64,000 nt of DNA, taken from the NCBI GenBank assembly GCA_002361775.1, contig DETV01000048.1:2186-66185 (forward strand), given 5' to 3'. A program made the translations under genes and the position numbers. Origin of the DNA: Eubacterium sp. UBA3279. GTDB taxonomy: Bacteria > Bacillota > Clostridia > Lachnospirales > Lachnospiraceae. Below the pieces are notes generated by a model. The model had not been told where the DNA came from, made no database searches, and saw only the letters and a list, made by a program, of their open reading frames with translations. Positions 25,888 through 31,303 of the stretch are shown here, piece by piece (positions within the stretch are counted from its first letter, which is position 1; every line of letters begins with the position of its first letter).

Positions 25888-25921
25888 AAATGAAAGAACG
25901 CACCGATTATCTCAGTGCGTC
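25888..25921 (-). terminator. Intra-operon intrinsic terminator-like hairpin
   Basis: Minus GACGCACTGA-GATAA-TCGGTGCGTT then CTTTCATTTT. Confidence 0.6.
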
Positions 25922-25945
25922 CGATACTGTATTTTATTTTGTTTT

Positions 25946-26866: not shown

Positions 26867-27799
26867 CTATCTGCTGTCACGGTCTGCCCGTTGCCTGAGA
26901 TACTTGTTATAATGCTCCAATGCCTTGCACACGAAATCCTCCGTTTGGCTGATTGGAATATTCTTCGGGATGAGTTGTCGCACTCTGTCTCCCCTTAACA
27001 CAATCTTCTCTTTCTGGTTCGGCTTTTCCTCCGACATAATGGCTTGGATAGCTTCAGTTGTGAGTTTGCCCTCATCGAAAAACTTACGCATACGAATAGT
27101 CTGGTCGTGAGAGGGAGTTGCGTCGTTCATATCAATCTCGTCAACTACATCACGCTGACAATCTTCGTCAAGATACGAAAGCTCCACCGCCGGTCGCATT
27201 TTAATTCGCCCCTCATCAACAAATTCAAGCAGTTCGGGAACAAGGTTTGTAAGGCGAACATAACGCTGGATTTGCGTTTTACTATCAGCAGAATTTTCTG
27301 CAATTTGTTCCACCGAGAACTTCTGACCCACTGGGGCAGAAGTTAAATCAGAACGAAATCCTTGCCTTTTCATAGCGTCCAAACGCATTTTGTAGGCATA
27401 GGCTTTTTCAGAGGGAAGTATCTGTGACCTTTGGAAATTACTTTCCACCATTAGAATTGTGGCTTCATCTCTATTAAGGTCAACAACCTCACATCTTAGC
27501 GTTTCAAAACCGGCAAGTTCGCTTGCTCGTTTTCGTCTGTGACCGGATACGAGTTCATATCTTCCGTCCTCTTTCTGCCTTACCGTTGCCGGAGTAATCA
27601 CTCCACGCTCCTTGATACTCTCGACAAGCTGTTGCATATCTTCATCGTCCCTGACCTTGAACGGGTGATCTGGGAAATCGTCAATCAGCTCTAATGGAAT
27701 ATCTCGGATTTTAGAAAGTCTTTCTTCCTCTCTCTGTGCCTGCGTTGTAAAAAGGTCATCGAGTCTCGTGAGAGTGAAGTCGCTCTTTCTTCCTGCCAT
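26867..27799 (-). CDS. parB: ParB/RepB/Spo0J partition protein
   Basis: FPDHPFKV, YELVSGHRRKRA arginine patch, HTH region. Confidence 0.9.
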   Translation of the reverse strand: MAGRKSDFTLTRLDDLFTTQAQREEERLSKIRDIPLELIDDFPDHPFKVRDDEDMQQLVESIKERGVITPATVRQKEDGRYELVSGHRRKRASELAGFETLRCEVVDLNRDEATILMVESNFQRSQILPSEKAYAYKMRLDAMKRQGFRSDLTSAPVGQKFSVEQIAENSADSKTQIQRYVRLTNLVPELLEFVDEGRIKMRPAVELSYLDEDCQRDVVDEIDMNDATPSHDQTIRMRKFFDEGKLTTEAIQAIMSEEKPNQKEKIVLRGDRVRQLIPKNIPISQTEDFVCKALEHYNKYLRQRADRDSR

Positions 27800-28580
27800 C
27801 GGCTAACACCTCCTTCGTAAATTCGGTGTATGCCTTTGACACCGTACTGTTTGGCTCATAAGCAAAAATGCTCTTTCCTTTGGAAGAAGTTTCTGCGGCT
27901 TTTACAGCAATCGGAATAGATGTGCGATACAGCTTAATCTGATTTCCGAAATTCTCCCGCAATGCTTCCACCGTACTTTTGGCGAGGTTTGTGCGGTTAT
28001 CCACCAAAGTGAGAAGCATACCGTCTATCTTAATGTCCTGATTGATATACTTCTTGACTTTTGAAATGGTCTGCACAAGCTGGGTCATACCCTTAGCCGG
28101 CAAATACTGTGCCTGCACCGGAACAATCACGCTGTCTGCCGCAGATAGAGCATTAAGTGTTACCATACTCAGTGAGGGCATACAGTCAATCAGAACAAAA
28201 TCATATCTGTCTTTGACCTGACTTAAATAATTCCTCAAAGTGGTTTCTCTGCTCATAGCGTTCATCAGGTTATATTCCATCGCCGAAAGTTCAAGGTTTG
28301 CCGGTAAAAGGTCAACGCCTTCCTCGTGGTGTAGAATACCGTCTGTCGGGTCATTCATCGTTTCACTAATCACATCTGTAAGTTTCGTTGCAAGCGTGAT
28401 ACCCAAATTGTCTGTATCTCTCCAACCGAGACAGGTGGTTAAATCTCCCTGTGGGTCTGCGTCAATGAGCAAGACTTTCTTACCCTGCATTGCAAGCCCA
28501 ACACCAAGATTAACCGTTGTCGTTGTCTTTCCGACTCCGCCTTTTTGATTGCATATGGCAATCGTTTTGCAGTTTGACAC
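27756..28580 (-). CDS. parA: ParA/Soj ATPase
   Basis: NQKGGVGKTTT deviant Walker A, IDADPQG, LIDCMPSL. Confidence 0.92.
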   Translation of the reverse strand: MSNCKTIAICNQKGGVGKTTTTVNLGVGLAMQGKKVLLIDADPQGDLTTCLGWRDTDNLGITLATKLTDVISETMNDPTDGILHHEEGVDLLPANLELSAMEYNLMNAMSRETTLRNYLSQVKDRYDFVLIDCMPSLSMVTLNALSAADSVIVPVQAQYLPAKGMTQLVQTISKVKKYINQDIKIDGMLLTLVDNRTNLAKSTVEALRENFGNQIKLYRTSIPIAVKAAETSSKGKSIFAYEPNSTVSKAYTEFTKEVLADGRKKERLHSHETR

Positions 28581-28599
28581 TTCTTGCCTCCTCCTTTCA

Positions 28600-28955
28600 A
28601 TTTATTCATAGCCAATAAAAACGGCTATGTACTTGACCGTTTCATTTCCTAAACGGTCGTGGCAATATTTATTCTCAATATCCCTTGCCAAGCATATCGC
28701 TTTCGGGAAGTCGTTAAGGAACAGGCTGCTTATCTGTATCATAGGAATCTAACCTCTGCCGGGTACTCCGCCAGCTCCGTAGAGAAGTATCATTATCTTT
28801 CTGACCGTCATCGCCATATCGGTTGCAATCCGATACTCATAGCAGGAGTTCTCGCTGTTCTGAAATTTCAGAAGTTTCGGCGTACCTACTAAAGTGGCTA
28901 TCATCAGAATTAAAGTCTTAACGACCTGTGTATTCAGTTGTCAAAGAACAAGTGA
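28600..28955 (-). ncRNA. Candidate structured 5' leader RNA of the parA-to-transfer operon
   Basis: Stems at 28607-29, 28635-58, 28660-90, 28817-35, 28858-73; long-range 28710-18/28917-25; G-U extensions favour the minus strand. Confidence 0.45.
28932..28951 (-). promoter_or_regulatory. boxA-like antitermination element
   Basis: Minus TTGTTCTTTGACAACTGAAT resembles rrn boxA (E. coli TGCTCTTTAACAA; Firmicutes GTTCTTTGAAAAC). Confidence 0.55.
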
Positions 28956-28986
28956 AAAGGCTTCCGTTTTCATTATCAGGAATTAA

Positions 28987-29026
28987 CCCCTTCACTCATT
29001 GCACAAAAGGCTTCATTTTGGACACC
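28987..29026 (-). promoter_or_regulatory. Candidate alternative-sigma promoter
   Basis: Minus GGTGTCC...GTGAAGGGG preceded by A/T tracts, directly downstream of a terminator; inference only. Confidence 0.3.
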
Positions 29027-29073
29027 CAAAATCGCTTCTTTTCCGAAAAAAATTTCAAAAAATTTTTGACAAC

Positions 29074-29110
29074 AAAAAAAGCCGCCTGTTTCGGTTAAAA
29101 AACAGACGGC
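29074..29110 (-). terminator. Intrinsic terminator
   Basis: GCCGTCTGTTT-loop-AAACAGGCGGC then T7. Confidence 0.85.
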
Positions 29111-29124
29111 ATAAATGCTTGAAA

Positions 29125-29298
29125 TTATTTGATTTTCAGTTTCTTTTTCCTTGCGGACAGCACTTTCAGAAGAACTTCATCTACTGCGTCGGTGTATCTT
29201 CCTTGTACTATGAGGTTGTTTTTCAGATTGATAAGCGACTGTATCACTCTGCTTTGCTCATCATCGGTTAGATAAATGTGATATTTCTTTTCTCTCAT
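29125..29298 (-). CDS. Small conserved ICE protein (57 aa), paralogue of 7599..7802
   Basis: MREKKYHIYLTDDEQSRVIQSLINLKNNLIVQGRYTDAVDEVLLKVLSARKKKLKIK; GGAGG RBS, ATGA overlap; missed by ORF track. Confidence 0.75.
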   Translation of the reverse strand: MREKKYHIYLTDDEQSRVIQSLINLKNNLIVQGRYTDAVDEVLLKVLSARKKKLKIK

Positions 29299-30683
29299 CG
29301 GCTGTTCCTCCAGTTCTTAAATATTTTCCTGATTATCTTAACATCTTCTTCTGTATCGGAAGATATAAATATATGTACGCTCTGAAATGCTGCTTTGATA
29401 CGCTGTGCATATTCGGGTTCCGCTTCGTTTGGCTTCATCGGCAACTTAATGAGTTTGATTCCACGTTGTTTACAGAGATGTTCCTTTAGTATATCTATCT
29501 TCTCCGAGTCCGTATTCACTTGAATGGCAACCTGCTCCAGTGGAATATATACATCAAGTGGAATGCCGAATAACCTATCAGAGCCAAGTTCCACTTTCAA
29601 GCCTTTCAAATTGGCATAATAACTGATTGCAAGAGCCGGGAACAACGACAGATACTCCTGCTCACATATTCTGCACCCTTTTCCGAGAGCAGTACGCTCG
29701 TTTATCTTCATACTCCAAGAATGACCGTATCTGCATTGCCACCATGCTCTCTTTGCCGAATTTCTTGAAACTTCTGTCGGTTTTAACTTGTTTAATTCAT
29801 AATCCCACTCAACAAGCAGTTCTCTATCAGTTGTTGCAAGGTCATTGTATCCTGCAAGCACTTCTCGCTCTGCACAGACAGGGCAAACCGTTCCTTTCAC
29901 ACGAGCATTTATAACTGATTTCCACTCGTTTCCACATTTTCTGCAATGCCACCATACATTTTTCCTCGACTTTGCATTGACTTCATCCGGTTGCAGAGGA
30001 TAGTTTTTCTCTGACCATTCTTTGCCTATCTGTGGGTGTGTACTTTTTAGGTCATTCTTGCCTTTTATAAATGTATAGCCACTGCAACAGGGACATTTAC
30101 TGCCACCTGAGCGTGTAGAGATAAGCGTATTCCATTCATAACCGCAGGTATTGCACTTCCACCAAGCCTTGCTGTTTGCAAACGCCATAACTTCGGTAGG
30201 CTTCTTTTCATTCTTATCAGACCATTCGTCTGCAACTTCCGGGAACAGGGTTGCAAGGTCGTTAAATCCTGCAAGCACTTTGTTATGGGAGCAGTACGGG
30301 CAACCTGTTTTGTTGATGGTTCTACTCTTTACAGTGGCTATCCATTCGTGTCCTAATTTACACTTCCATATCACTTTCTTGTGTGAGCCGATAGATACAT
30401 CTGTCGGCTTGATTTCATTTTTCTCTGACCACTCCGAAGCCAATTCCGGCTTCAATGTACTTAAATCGTTAATTCCCTCAATCACTCTCGCACCGGAGCA
30501 TATGGGGCATTTCTCGCCACTGGAACGAGCCTTTATACTTGTTTCCCATTCGTGACCGCAAGCACCTTTCCACCATACTTTCTTATTCGAGCCGAAAGTC
30601 ACACTGTCTGGTGTCAGCGGTAAATTCCTGTCCGACCATTCTGCAATCAGTTCGGGATGTACTGCCGCTAAACTGTTACTCAT
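29295..30683 (-). CDS. Tandem treble-clef zinc-ribbon repeat protein (DUF4379-like) with degenerate nuclease-like C-terminus
   Basis: Five ~65-aa repeats P....EW...N...P..V...S..K.WW.C..GHEW......R.....CP.C. Confidence 0.8.
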   Translation of the reverse strand: MSNSLAAVHPELIAEWSDRNLPLTPDSVTFGSNKKVWWKGACGHEWETSIKARSSGEKCPICSGARVIEGINDLSTLKPELASEWSEKNEIKPTDVSIGSHKKVIWKCKLGHEWIATVKSRTINKTGCPYCSHNKVLAGFNDLATLFPEVADEWSDKNEKKPTEVMAFANSKAWWKCNTCGYEWNTLISTRSGGSKCPCCSGYTFIKGKNDLKSTHPQIGKEWSEKNYPLQPDEVNAKSRKNVWWHCRKCGNEWKSVINARVKGTVCPVCAEREVLAGYNDLATTDRELLVEWDYELNKLKPTEVSRNSAKRAWWQCRYGHSWSMKINERTALGKGCRICEQEYLSLFPALAISYYANLKGLKVELGSDRLFGIPLDVYIPLEQVAIQVNTDSEKIDILKEHLCKQRGIKLIKLPMKPNEAEPEYAQRIKAAFQSVHIFISSDTEEDVKIIRKIFKNWRNSR

Positions 30684-30850: not shown

Positions 30851-31303
30851 TCAAAGTGGTTGCATCATCTCAAGAATGATTCCATCCGGGTCTCTGAAAT
30901 AAAAAGCTCTGCTTTCCCCAAATCCATCTGCCCTAAAGTCGAAATACTGCGGTTCAGACAAGCACTCCACATGATTTTCGATAAGGGTTTTGTAAACAGA
31001 ATCAATGTCATCCGTGTAAAAGCATACTTCTGAGATAGATGTCGTAAACAAGTCTGATTGTTCTTTATGGATTTTGCTGTCTACAAACTGAATCAATTCA
31101 ATCGGTGGTGCTTCAAGAGCCTTCGAACCATTCAAATATGCAACCCTTGCTTTACAATTTTCCTTACGGAACATTTTATCTGTCTCTTCGCCTTCCATAA
31201 AGATTTCGCCCTGAAATTCAAGCCCAAGAATATCTCTGTAGAAAGCAATCGAGCGATCCAAATCAGAAACGGTTAATCCAACGTGATAAATTCTTCCAAC
31301 CAT
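30851..31303 (-). CDS. VOC / glyoxalase family protein
   Basis: YHVGLTVSDLDRSIAFYRDILGL; FYFRDPDGIILEM. Confidence 0.88.
   Translation of the reverse strand: MVGRIYHVGLTVSDLDRSIAFYRDILGLEFQGEIFMEGEETDKMFRKENCKARVAYLNGSKALEAPPIELIQFVDSKIHKEQSDLFTTSISEVCFYTDDIDSVYKTLIENHVECLSEPQYFDFRADGFGESRAFYFRDPDGIILEMMQPL

Follow-up and report, generated by a model that had tools for sequence, protein, structure and literature searches.

The window analysed here, a stretch of 64,000 nucleotides in all, carries a co-directional gene array of at least 28 kb headed by parA. All 13 large ORFs from position 28580 to position 194 lie on the same strand and have ICE functions. Pfam scans showed that parA is followed by parB and by genes for a lipoprotein, a SpaA/thioester adhesin, a giant SNF2-methylase protein and a toprim protein, and later in the array by those for a relaxase, a coupling protein, a VirB4-like ATPase and a sortase. 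As parA is encoded on the minus strand, the leader upstream of it is read from high to low coordinates. The array and its surroundings contain the following features:

29081-29110, minus strand: upstream intrinsic terminator (12-bp stem and T-run), which ends the DUF4379/57-aa gene unit
28587-28598, minus strand: parA ribosome-binding site GAAAGGAGGAGG, read from the sequence and conserved in all homologues
27756-28580, minus strand: parA, first gene of the array (Pfam scan)
25896-25922, minus strand: intrinsic terminator inside the array, behind its third gene; a candidate antiterminator target

A terminator is found at the same upstream place in most related loci, and the one seen here probably shields both leader and array from transcription that reads in from upstream. 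The 57-aa upstream ORF is widespread, occurring on at least 1000 contigs; it matched no Pfam or NCBIfam family. The internal terminator has a poor U-tract (TTTCATTTT), and divergent related elements have a canonical terminator after the third gene too, with non-homologous stems. Terminator-like sites within the array lie at 25922-25896, 21521-21492, 11529-11513, 5423-5394 and 4027-4005.

The earlier note had described a structured non-coding leader at 28600-28930, and an inverted-repeat search recovered all five of the stems that it listed:

28607-28613 with 28623-28629: CATAGCC/GGCTATG stem
28635-28642 with 28651-28658: GACCGTTT/AAACGGTC stem
28660-28665 with 28685-28690: TGGCAA/TTGCCA stem
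28817-28822 with 28830-28835: TATCGG/CCGATA stem
28710-28718 with 28917-28925: 9-nt long-range pair GTCGTTAAG/CTTAACGAC

The extension of the long-range pair on the minus strand was also found, one G-U and one A-U pair lengthening it to 11 bp. The single-sequence fold was only modestly better than those of shuffled sequences (z = -2.8 for the minus strand and -2.0 for the plus strand), so the case that the stems exceed chance was made by comparison of homologues. ORFs of 46-77 codons are present on both strands, but the view that none is credible was upheld by the compensatory base changes in the leader and by its indels, which are not multiples of three.

The leader upstream of parA is kept in ~75 of 80 related conjugative elements, which come from many different Clostridia. 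When its homologues were examined for conservation and covariation, both were found and both were strong. The covariation set consisted of 57 distinct aligned homologues, scored over ten specified helices with 49 pairs. In these helices 96.9% of cells were paired, compared with 27-45% when the partners were slid by 1-3 columns, and compensatory changes on both sides were present in 39 of the 49 pairs. None of 500 shuffles reached any one of the observed pairing and covariation measures. The large excess of G-U over A-C cells (136 vs 29) indicates that the strand that folds is the parA-sense (minus) strand; covariation alone cannot tell an RNA fold from a fold of the sense strand as single-stranded DNA.

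The long-range helix, P1, is kept in all 57 aligned homologues with several different sequences, at least seven of them in the leader family. Over 47 distinct strand pairs the median helix was 9 bp, with a shuffle P ≤ 0.05 in 83%, and the mean helix was 9.3 bp with a strand's own partner and 6.0 bp with swapped partners. A closing helix of the P1 type was found in Tn916-type elements as well. The alignments show, at the level of sequence, that the leader forms several helices on the parA-sense strand that are conserved and covary, and that it contains a domain of ~220 nt closed by P1. The claim of a structured RNA at this place was therefore correct, but its limits had been set too narrowly. 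The element extends over ~28995-28600 (minus strand) and includes covarying helices that had gone unlisted: P0 (28995-28952), P2, P3 (28874-28858), the three pemK hairpins and P8 (28737-28721). From 5′ to 3′ its parts are:

28952-28995, minus strand: two-tier hairpin P0, GUGAAGGGG...CCUUUUCAC, outermost on the 5′ side of the conserved element
28931-28946, minus strand: conserved box CUUUGACAACUGAAUA, nearly invariant in the 57 homologues
28917-28927, minus strand: P1 5′ strand AGGUCGUUAAG, pairs with 28708-28718
28885-28891, minus strand: P2 5′ strand UAGUAGG, pairs with 28840-28846
28858-28874, minus strand: P3 hairpin CUUCUG...CAGAA, after a conserved GGUACGCC
28848-28856, minus strand: conserved single-stranded block AGCGAGAAC, nearly invariant
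28840-28846, minus strand: P2 3′ strand CCUGCUA
28818-28834, minus strand: P4 hairpin AUCGG-AUUGCAA-CCGAU (the TATCGG/CCGATA stem)
28797-28815, minus strand: conserved junction GGCGAUGACGGUCAGAAAG into the pemK motif
28739-28796, minus strand: pemK motif (RF02913), 5′ AUAAUGAUACUUC and then three hairpins
28721-28737, minus strand: P8 hairpin ACAGAU...GCCUGU, between pemK and the P1 3′ strand
28708-28718, minus strand: P1 3′ strand CUUAACGACUU, pairs with 28917-28927
28660-28691, minus strand: P9, with outer UGGCAA/UUGCCA and inner UAUU/AAUA
28635-28658, minus strand: P10, a variable hairpin GACCGUUU...AAACGGUC that covaries where present
28626-28631, minus strand: UACAUA at the base of P11, a match to the motif U^ACAUA cut by MazF/EndoA
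28607-28629, minus strand: P11 hairpin CAUAGCCG...UGGCUAUG, just 5′ of the ribosome-binding site

P0 folds in 37 of 39 distinct variants and its inner stem covaries. Further upstream, a GGGTGTSCA sequence and an AAT-rich stretch at 29030-29000 are also conserved. The P2 helix occurs as UAUCGGG/CCCGGUA, UAGACGG/CCGUCUA and GUAGUGGG/CCCACUAC in other variants; its predicted pairing has moderate support, with a mismatch or bulge in some homologues. Nearly all variants have a hairpin at the position of P3, with differing stem sequences. In P4, where 97.9% of cells are paired, compensatory changes were found in all five pairs, while the three pemK hairpins are 100% paired with 9 of 12 pairs changed on both sides, and P8 has compensatory changes in five of its six pairs.

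On the 3′ side of the P1-closed domain, a module comprising a UUCCC sequence, P9 and P11 with its UACAUA separates the putative antiterminator domain from the ribosome-binding site; it was seen in the parA-type leaders that were compared, including the distant one at locus L083. Compensatory changes were seen in all six outer pairs of P9 and in three of its four inner pairs, and its internal loop and apex are conserved (GGGGyGUUGAGAACAAAUA). RNAalifold pairs UUCCC with the GGGG of P9, and both are invariant. The GACCGTTT hairpin of the earlier note, here P10, is real, but it is absent from 14 of the 57 homologues and so is a feature of about three quarters of them. In P11 the distal pairs covary and the base is conserved in sequence beyond the needs of pairing. 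A pairing of GAUAGCC (28900-28895) with the 3′ arm of P11 was considered; the local hairpin was preferred because substitutions in P11 have their compensating partners in P11 itself, with none in the upstream GAUAGCC copy.

An Rfam covariance-model search of the leader identified its core. Positions 28739-28796 (minus strand) match the pemK family (RF02913) at 67.1 bits, against a gathering score of 34.8, over model positions 1-61 of 61 and with E = 6.7e-10 for the whole window. No other family rose above its gathering score in a permissive Rfam scan of the region. The suggestion of a new ncRNA motif was not borne out for the core, where RF02913 scores at about twice its gathering score. The match has the whole 61-position model in common with Rfam pemK, along with the three hairpins and the conserved AUAAUGAUAC, which is invariant among the compared loci. 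It differs in that the Rfam model spans only ~60 nt, whereas the conserved domain here is ~220-400 nt, and in that the downstream gene is parA and not the pemK of the motif's name.

RF02913 is a candidate cis-regulatory RNA from the screen of Weinberg et al. (2017, PMC5737381), although the pemK motif is not mentioned in the main text of that paper. A literature search found no function assigned to pemK and no paper containing both 'pemK' and 'canT'. The motif was present in 25 of 301 genomes of the phylum (~8% of those sampled), always beside mobile-element genes, and the genes downstream of it include parA, xis-like genes, serine recombinases and tyrosine recombinases. This diversity of mobile-element contexts suggests that the target of the pemK RNA is a factor shared by many hosts, which we infer to be RNA polymerase.

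A function for the motif is suggested by Tn916. This element carries canT, a cis-acting, orientation-specific, processive antiterminator RNA, which works in a chromosomal transcription reporter on terminators placed downstream (Wirachman and Grossman, PLoS Genet. 2024, PMC11658703). The canT(S3) mutation and a 162-bp deletion each abolished more than 95% of antitermination and lowered conjugation ~100-fold, and the authors could not derive a structure for canT by single-sequence folding (PMC11658703). In the pCF10 copy of Tn916 (locus L112) the pemK motif was found at 1535-1635. By the paper's coordinates, canT(S3), a change of ATA to TGC at +283 after the orf8 stop, falls on L112 1535-1537, which are pemK positions 1-3, and the deletion (1481-1642) takes out the entire motif. 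The equivalents of the S3 nucleotides, the first three of pemK, are invariant in the leader family of the window.

The likeness extends beyond the motif. The box CUUUGAMAAYUGAAUA, with a closing helix directly after it, is found in Tn916 and at most other pemK loci, with differing helix sequences; it thus stands upstream of pemK in unrelated contexts, and the active 452-bp canT fragment of Tn916 begins with it. As this fragment is active and has no equivalent of P0, it may be that antitermination does not need P0. When the 5′ half of the leader, with pemK excluded, was used as an nhmmer profile, it found Tn916 canT at E = 0.0017, a weak similarity outside the core; in all, 15 of 30 pemK loci were found at E < 0.01, and every hit adjoined the motif on its 5′ side, in the same orientation. 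In summary, canT and the parA leader have in common the pemK core, the 5′ box UUGAMAAYUGAAUA, a long-range helix whose 5′ strand follows the box by a few nucleotides and whose 3′ strand comes after a hairpin located 3′ of pemK, and the blocks ACGCC..GAC, AGCGAG and GCC..GAC..GAUAAUGAUAC. Tn916-type elements also carry AGCGAGCG, a block related to AGCGAGAAC, the GCC..GAC block of the junction and an equivalent of P8. Both RNAs lie on the sense strand of a conjugative element with a long operon containing intrinsic terminators. Judged by these correspondences, the pemK motif here is the counterpart of the functional core of Tn916 canT, and the proposal that the leader is a cis-acting antitermination RNA gains support from the homology (pemK core, box, P1, blocks and S3 site).

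There are also differences. In Tn916 canT lies between sig8 (orf8) and xis, before xis-int, and its targets are reached only after excision and circularisation; here the RNA is directly before parA, the first gene of the array, and downstream of the insulating terminator. The 3′ module (UUCCC, P9, P10 and P11) and its single MazF site are absent from Tn916, which has a large insertion in the first pemK hairpin.

We therefore consider it likely, with a probability of about 0.7, that the parA leader (~28995-28600, minus strand) is a processive antiterminator RNA of the canT/pemK family that heads the main array of the ICE. The context fits such a role, with at least 28 kb of co-directional genes behind the leader and, in relatives, an internal terminator conserved in position. 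By analogy with canT, the nascent leader RNA would fold during transcription and act in cis on its own polymerase. That polymerase would become resistant to intrinsic terminators and would complete the array of at least 28 kb, from parA and parB, past the adhesin and DNA-processing genes, to those for type IV secretion. Polymerases without a transcribed leader would be halted, those reading in from upstream at 29110-29081 and those from spurious internal starts at sites like 25922-25896.

Between the upstream terminator and P0 the search gave no convincing sigma-70 promoter, and hence the start of transcription could be deduced solely from the extent of the covarying structure; covarying helices reaching to 28995 imply a start upstream of the P1 5′ strand. 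Two candidates inside the leader were rejected. TTGGCA-16-AATATT (28691-28664), the only sigma-70-like match in the leader, lies within P9, where homologues keep the pairing and not the hexamers. The TTGACA of the box has no usable -10 sequence at 16-18 nt and is transcribed in the active canT fragment.

The leader can also be compared with other antitermination systems. The conAn system of pLS20 is made up of the ConAn1 protein and the conAn2 RNA (Miguel-Arribas et al. 2021, PMC8191782). It is similar in having a large RNA at the start of a ~30 kb conjugation operon with internal terminators, and a central region of ~240 nt between long-range inverted repeats. It differs in needing the ConAn1 processivity protein (Pfam PF17362, pXO2-34), which is encoded just upstream; none of the 16 proteins scanned here, the product of the 57-aa upstream ORF among them, matched PF17362. 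The flanking repeats of conAn2 are, moreover, dispensable, and we know of no sequence or Rfam relationship between conAn2 and the parA leader. The put RNA of phage HK022 and the EAR of the Bacillus eps operon are cis-acting, protein-independent RNAs that confer terminator resistance, the mechanism proposed for canT, but both are much smaller than the leader and have a different fold and sequence.

From the extra 3′ module and its conserved MazF site it is clear that the leader has functions beyond those known for canT; the module probably provides a second layer of control, at the post-transcriptional level. Of the 57 homologues, 56 have a single UACAUA in the leader, 45-60 nt before the start codon. 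In the window's element it is the only sense-strand UACAU from contig position 48 to the leader, a distance of 30.8 kb; the downstream array contains none on that strand, whereas 18.5 ± 3.7 are expected from synonymous shuffles. The host encodes an EndoA-type MazF, and the motif U^ACAUA has been reported (bioRxiv 10.64898/2026.08.06.743204).

The single conserved site, the conservation of the P11 base beyond pairing needs, the lack of sites over the 30.8 kb downstream and the presence of the toxin with its reported motif could all be accommodated if the leader were mainly an element of post-transcriptional control or processing, in which a MazF/EndoA-type or other RNase cuts UACAUA at the foot of P11. 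The cut would leave a protective 5′ hairpin on the mRNA or shut the operon off, and the upstream domain would be a scaffold or sensor in place of an antiterminator. MazF cleaves single-stranded RNA, whereas the CAUA of the site is paired in P11. The upstream homology to canT, which antiterminates without a MazF site, would be left unexplained, and there is no UACAU depletion in Tn916 (21 sense and 18 antisense occurrences), so that depletion was rejected as a general trait of canT-bearing elements. Processing as the main role is on these grounds unlikely, and as an added layer it would be compatible with antitermination and not a strict alternative to it.

Such a combination is possible, and we put it forward tentatively: the leader may be a two-part switch, in which an antiterminator of the canT type is followed by the element's only MazF site (28631-28626), the others having been purged. 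When MazF is active, whether the EndoA-type enzyme of the host or one from a competing element, the coding transcript would be immune. A single cut in the leader could have either of two effects: the array would be silenced at its internal terminators, once the antiterminator had been severed from the polymerase, or the transcript would be shortened to an mRNA with the P11 hairpin at its 5′ end.

As covariation with G-T wobbles on one strand is also expected of a folded transferred strand, and as the only carriers of pemK motifs are mobile elements that pass through a single-stranded DNA stage, the possibility was considered that the fold forms in DNA, as a single-strand origin or promoter for rolling-circle replication or on the sense strand after transfer. 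An ssoA origin consists of a long imperfect hairpin with an RSB element and a CS-6 hexamer, TAGCGT, in its terminal loop. The AGCGAG of the leader bears a weak likeness to this hexamer; it is the only ssoA feature conserved, its first base varies among homologues, and the fold is a branched multi-helix junction and not a long promoter-mimicking duplex. The resemblance was judged too weak. Furthermore, the homologous canT is orientation-specific in a chromosomal reporter, where it acts on downstream terminators (PMC11658703), and sso916 has been drawn as a feature separate from canT in Tn916 (bioRxiv 10.64898/2026.10.01.756105). A role as folded DNA is accordingly very improbable.

It is just as improbable that the leader is a riboswitch that senses a ligand or tRNA and controls parA by attenuation or translation. 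A conserved multi-stem junction with invariant unpaired nucleotides, placed 5′ of genes and typed by Rfam as cis-regulatory, would suit a riboswitch, but no riboswitch family reached its cut-off in the Rfam scan of the leader region. There is no terminator/antiterminator platform between the domain and parA, P11 lacks a U-tract, and conserved pairings leave the ribosome-binding site free. RNAalifold did pair CUUCU (28874-28870) with the GGAGG of that site; this is an artefact of the MAFFT alignment, in which the 3′ half of P3 was misplaced, and the conservation is explained by the local P3 hairpin. The genes downstream are functionally unrelated except as mobile-element genes, and canT is active in a heterologous host with heterologous promoters and terminators.

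That the inverted repeats are DNA-level protein sites (parS or an operator) or a promoter, with no folded strand, is scarcely credible even though ParB sites often adjoin parA and the sigma-70-like TTGGCA-16-AATATT lies at 28691-28664, since the loop lengths vary (9-17 nt in P11) in a manner ill-suited to a dimeric DNA binder, the arms change compensatorily with no conservation of the hexamers, and the 136 to 29 ratio of G-U to A-C cells indicates that a single strand folds.

Processive antitermination by the leader RNA is thus the reading we prefer. Mapping the canT mutations onto pemK gives this RNA family a tested function, processive antitermination, and the family alignment in turn gives canT a covariation-supported structure made up of the box, P1, P2-P4, the pemK hairpins and P8. 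The array free of MazF sites, together with the one conserved site in the leader, suggests that toxin-antitoxin ribonucleases are linked to the control of conjugation. If the two-part switch is real, conjugation would be tied to the toxin-antitoxin state of the host, and this could bear on the pemK/mazF gene association behind the name of the RNA family. If the leader is an antiterminator, many conjugative elements of gut Clostridia, including the widespread parA-headed family studied here, would license their long operons with an RNA of this kind.

The non-coding stretch upstream of parA occupies 28581-29124, and on its far side it meets a strong intrinsic terminator (29110-29081) and a 57-codon ORF. 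The two genes that follow the leader (the structured, parA-sense RNA region) are:

27756-28580, minus strand: parA, from ORF and Pfam scans
26867-27799, minus strand: parB, following parA

All large ORFs from the leader to the window's left end lie on the same strand and have functions typical of conjugative elements; the products include ParA and ParB, a lipoprotein, a SpaA/thioester adhesin, a 2613-aa SNF2-methylase protein, a toprim protein, a MobA/VirD2-type relaxase, a VirD4-type coupling protein, a VirB4-like ATPase and a sortase. Comparison with related copies extends the element upstream to about 30820, towards the 3' end of lysS. This places the leader inside the element, where it heads the main array without reaching the element's end. 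A glyoxalase/VOC-family gene (30851-31303, minus strand), which separates the DUF4379 gene from the 3' end of lysS, is missing from at least one near-identical element copy (L002) and is thus probably variable cargo. In window positions 1-28580, GGCC, CTAG, CGCG and GCGC have no copies on either strand, CATG and GATC have two each, and neither of the pentamers CCWGG and GGWCC occurs; for the same 4-bp palindromes, the chromosomal part of the window has densities of 0.03-4.5 per kb. This scarcity looks like restriction-site avoidance.

An Rfam search matched 28739-28796 (minus strand) to the full pemK model (RF02913) with 67.1 bits, where the gathering score is 34.8. The core of the leader is thus an already described motif, and the earlier note's option of a new ncRNA motif is not supported. 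No paper giving pemK a function was found in a literature search. The motif is present in 25 of 301 sampled genomes of the phylum, from 22 genera, and mobile-element genes of diverse kinds come first downstream of it, among them parA and those for Xis-like helix-turn-helix proteins, serine recombinases, a tyrosine integrase and proteins resembling TnpW. One match, 76 nt upstream of a Tn916-type xis, prompted a comparison with canT, the antitermination RNA of Tn916.

[quoted passage not shown] The published features were mapped onto the Tn916 copy on pCF10 (NC_006827.2; locus L112, orf8 CDS end at 1252):

L112 1378-1829 (+126 to +577 after the orf8 stop): the 452-bp canT fragment
L112 1481-1642 (+229 to +390): the 162-bp deletion
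L112 1535-1537 (+283): the S3 substitution, ATA to TGC

Rfam places pemK at L112 1535-1635, and 1535-1537 read ATA, which are positions 1-3 of the pemK model (AUAAUGAUAC) and are invariant in the leader family of the window. The inactivating S3 change thus falls within the motif, which the 162-bp deletion takes out; the core of canT, as defined by mutation, is pemK. Neither pemK nor Rfam is mentioned in PMC11658703 or in a 2026 preprint from the same laboratory (bioRxiv 10.64898/2026.10.01.756105).

The likeness extends beyond the Rfam model. A box, CUUUGACAACUGAAUA (28946-28931, minus strand), is nearly invariant in the leaders and also precedes pemK in most other loci of the motif. In Tn916, too, it lies upstream of pemK, and the active 452-bp fragment begins with it. 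A helix follows, with its 5' strand 0-7 nt after the box and its 3' strand 13-20 nt after the pemK motif, and its sequence differs element by element (AGUAAUCGAAUA/UGUUCGAUUGCU in Tn916; AAACAGUCUGAU/GUCAGACUGUUU and GUUUUAUCCGGUA/UGCCGGAUAAAAC in other pemK elements). Alignment of nine diverse members gave as common invariant blocks the box, AC.UU, AGC, CGC..GA, GC.A.GA and GAUAAUGAUAC. An nhmmer profile of the 5' half of the parA leaders only, with pemK excluded, found 15 of 30 pemK loci at E < 0.01, each match lying immediately 5' of the motif and on its strand (Tn916, E = 0.0017; closer xis-type elements, 1e-8 to 1e-5). Together, the shared box, closing helix and blocks and the profile matches place the leader in the family that contains canT. 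The conserved unit of this family is a domain that spans about 220-300 nt; the Rfam model covers about 60 nt of it. At pemK loci before serine recombinases (L098, L099, L110, L091 and others) a shorter box variant, CUCUUUGAAAAA, comes after a P0-like GUGAGGGGG...CCCCC hairpin, and an extra hairpin is inserted between the box and the conserved AUAC-GUU, so the family has several architectural subtypes.

All five stems listed in the earlier note were found where it had placed them, and the long-range pair extends on the minus strand to 11 bp through one G-U and one A-U pair. The single-sequence fold energy is only modestly better than that of shuffles (z = -2.8 on the minus strand, -2.0 on the plus strand) and is unconvincing on its own. 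A ParA scan gave 80 loci from many genera of Clostridia, in about 75 of which the whole region upstream of parA is conserved (70-98% nucleotide identity). Pairs were counted in an alignment of 57 distinct leaders, in which MAFFT aligned ten helices cleanly. Of 2630 cells, 96.9% are paired; sliding the 3' partners by 1-3 columns lowers this to 27-45%. Both sides have changed in 39 of the 49 pairs, and none of 500 shuffles matched any observed pairing measure. G-U cells exceed A-C cells (136 vs 29), which identifies the parA-sense strand as the folding strand.

Because MAFFT shifts the register of the long-range closing helix, P1, this was tested sequence by sequence. It was found in all 57 leaders, with 6-11 bp and at least seven different sequences (AGGUCGUUAAG/CUUAACGACUU, UCACUAAG/CUUAGUGA, AGGCGCUAAGG/CCUUAGCGCUU, AGGCACUGAGG/CCUCAGUGCUU and UCAUCAGAA/UUCUGAUGA, for example). 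Over 47 distinct strand pairs, unrelated elements included, the median helix is 9 bp and 83% do better than shuffled partners (P <= 0.05); the mean helix is 9.3 bp with own partners and 6.0 bp with swapped ones. Covarying helices beyond the five first listed are P0 (28995-28952), P2, P3, three pemK hairpins and P8. Support for P2 is moderate, with exceptions, and P10, a GACCGUUU hairpin, is missing in 14 of the 57 homologues. The hexamer GAGAAC, exact or nearly so, occurs three times at unpaired positions and may be a repeated contact site:

28856-28848, minus strand: within AGCGAGAAC
28768-28762, minus strand: loop of the second pemK hairpin (GAGUAC here, consensus GAGAAC)
28677-28671, minus strand: P9 apex (GAGAAU here, GAGAAC in most homologues)

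Covariation alone would also be compatible with a single-stranded DNA element, but this is unlikely since canT works in a chromosomal transcription reporter (PMC11658703) and sso916 is a separate feature of Tn916 (bioRxiv 10.64898/2026.10.01.756105). Against a riboswitch, the leader has no expression platform. That the repeats are DNA-level operators or a promoter is contradicted by the compensatory changes, the varying loop lengths and the G-U asymmetry.

Homology to canT supports the earlier note's proposal of an antitermination RNA, and the leader appears to be a further member of the known canT/pemK antiterminator family. By that homology, the nascent leader RNA would fold and act in cis on its own polymerase, which would then be resistant to terminators. 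The surroundings agree with this. The strong terminator at 29110-29081 ends the upstream unit and should block read-in. Terminator-like sites lie on the sense strand of the array:

25922-25896, terminator-like site
21521-21492, terminator-like site
11529-11513, terminator-like site
5423-5394, terminator-like site
4027-4005, terminator-like site

After the third gene, divergent relatives have in the same place a canonical terminator (10-12 bp stem and U-tract) whose stem is unrelated in sequence; the position is kept and the sequence is not, as a termination-antitermination design predicts. In Tn916 canT acts across the circular junction, whereas the leader heads its array, an arrangement nearer to that of pLS20, with its RNA at the operon head. 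No ConAn1-type protein (PF17362) was found among the proteins scanned, and no leader promoter was identified between the upstream terminator and P0. The covariation of P0 implies that transcription would start upstream of 28995. A 77-codon ORF antisense to the leader (28659-28892, plus strand) has a parallel in orf5 of Tn916, an ORF that is antisense to canT, overlaps it and was found not to work through a protein product (PMC11658703); the ORF here is probably spurious as well.

Three extra features lie between P1 and the ribosome-binding site in parA-type leaders, a distant one (L083) included:

an invariant UUCCC
P9, covarying stems around a conserved GGGGyGUUGAGAACAAAUA
P11, a hairpin with a conserved sequence at its base and covariation in its distal pairs

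The array's most strand-asymmetric 5-mer is TACAT, with no copy on the sense strand (28,580 nt; window 1-28580) vs 31 antisense. For the 13 array genes, synonymous-codon shuffles gave an expected 18.5 +/- 3.7 UACAU (minimum 8 in 300), and the control pentamer ATGTA was at expectation. The UACAU-free sense run of 30,764 nt (contig C81, 48-30811) is the longest one-strand run in the 2.94-Mb genome (next, 12.6 kb) and stops exactly at one site:

28631-28626, minus strand: the leader's UACAUA

Related elements have 12 sense vs 164 antisense copies of UACAU in 221 kb, and 56 of 57 homologous leaders have exactly one, 45-60 nt before the parA start. The depletion is absent from Tn916 and is therefore a trait of this element family, not of canT RNAs generally. 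Two genes immediately upstream of the leader, common to many element copies, have normal UACAU density and end at terminator 29110-29081, and so form a separate transcription unit:

29125-29298, minus strand: 57-aa protein that matches no family in Pfam or NCBIfam and was seen on at least 1000 contigs
29295-30683, minus strand: 462-aa protein, five DUF4379 treble-clef zinc-finger repeats

For MazF of B. subtilis, Listeria and S. aureus, U^ACAUA is reported as a strict cleavage motif (bioRxiv 10.64898/2026.08.06.743204). On contigs other than the leader's, the host carries two PemK/MazF-family genes:

C63:51802-52125, minus strand: close homologue of EndoA/MazF (E = 1.7e-48 to PDB 4MDX)
C108:33787-34101, minus strand: second family member, with a cysteine-rich C-terminal extension of about 70 aa

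The leader's single MazF motif could be the point at which the cis-acting RNA is severed from the polymerase, or a maturation site leaving a 5' hairpin; alternatively, the UACAUA could be protected within P11 and kept for another reason. An array free of MazF sites with one conserved site in its leader is of wider interest, and the canT/pemK family now has a covariation-supported structure.
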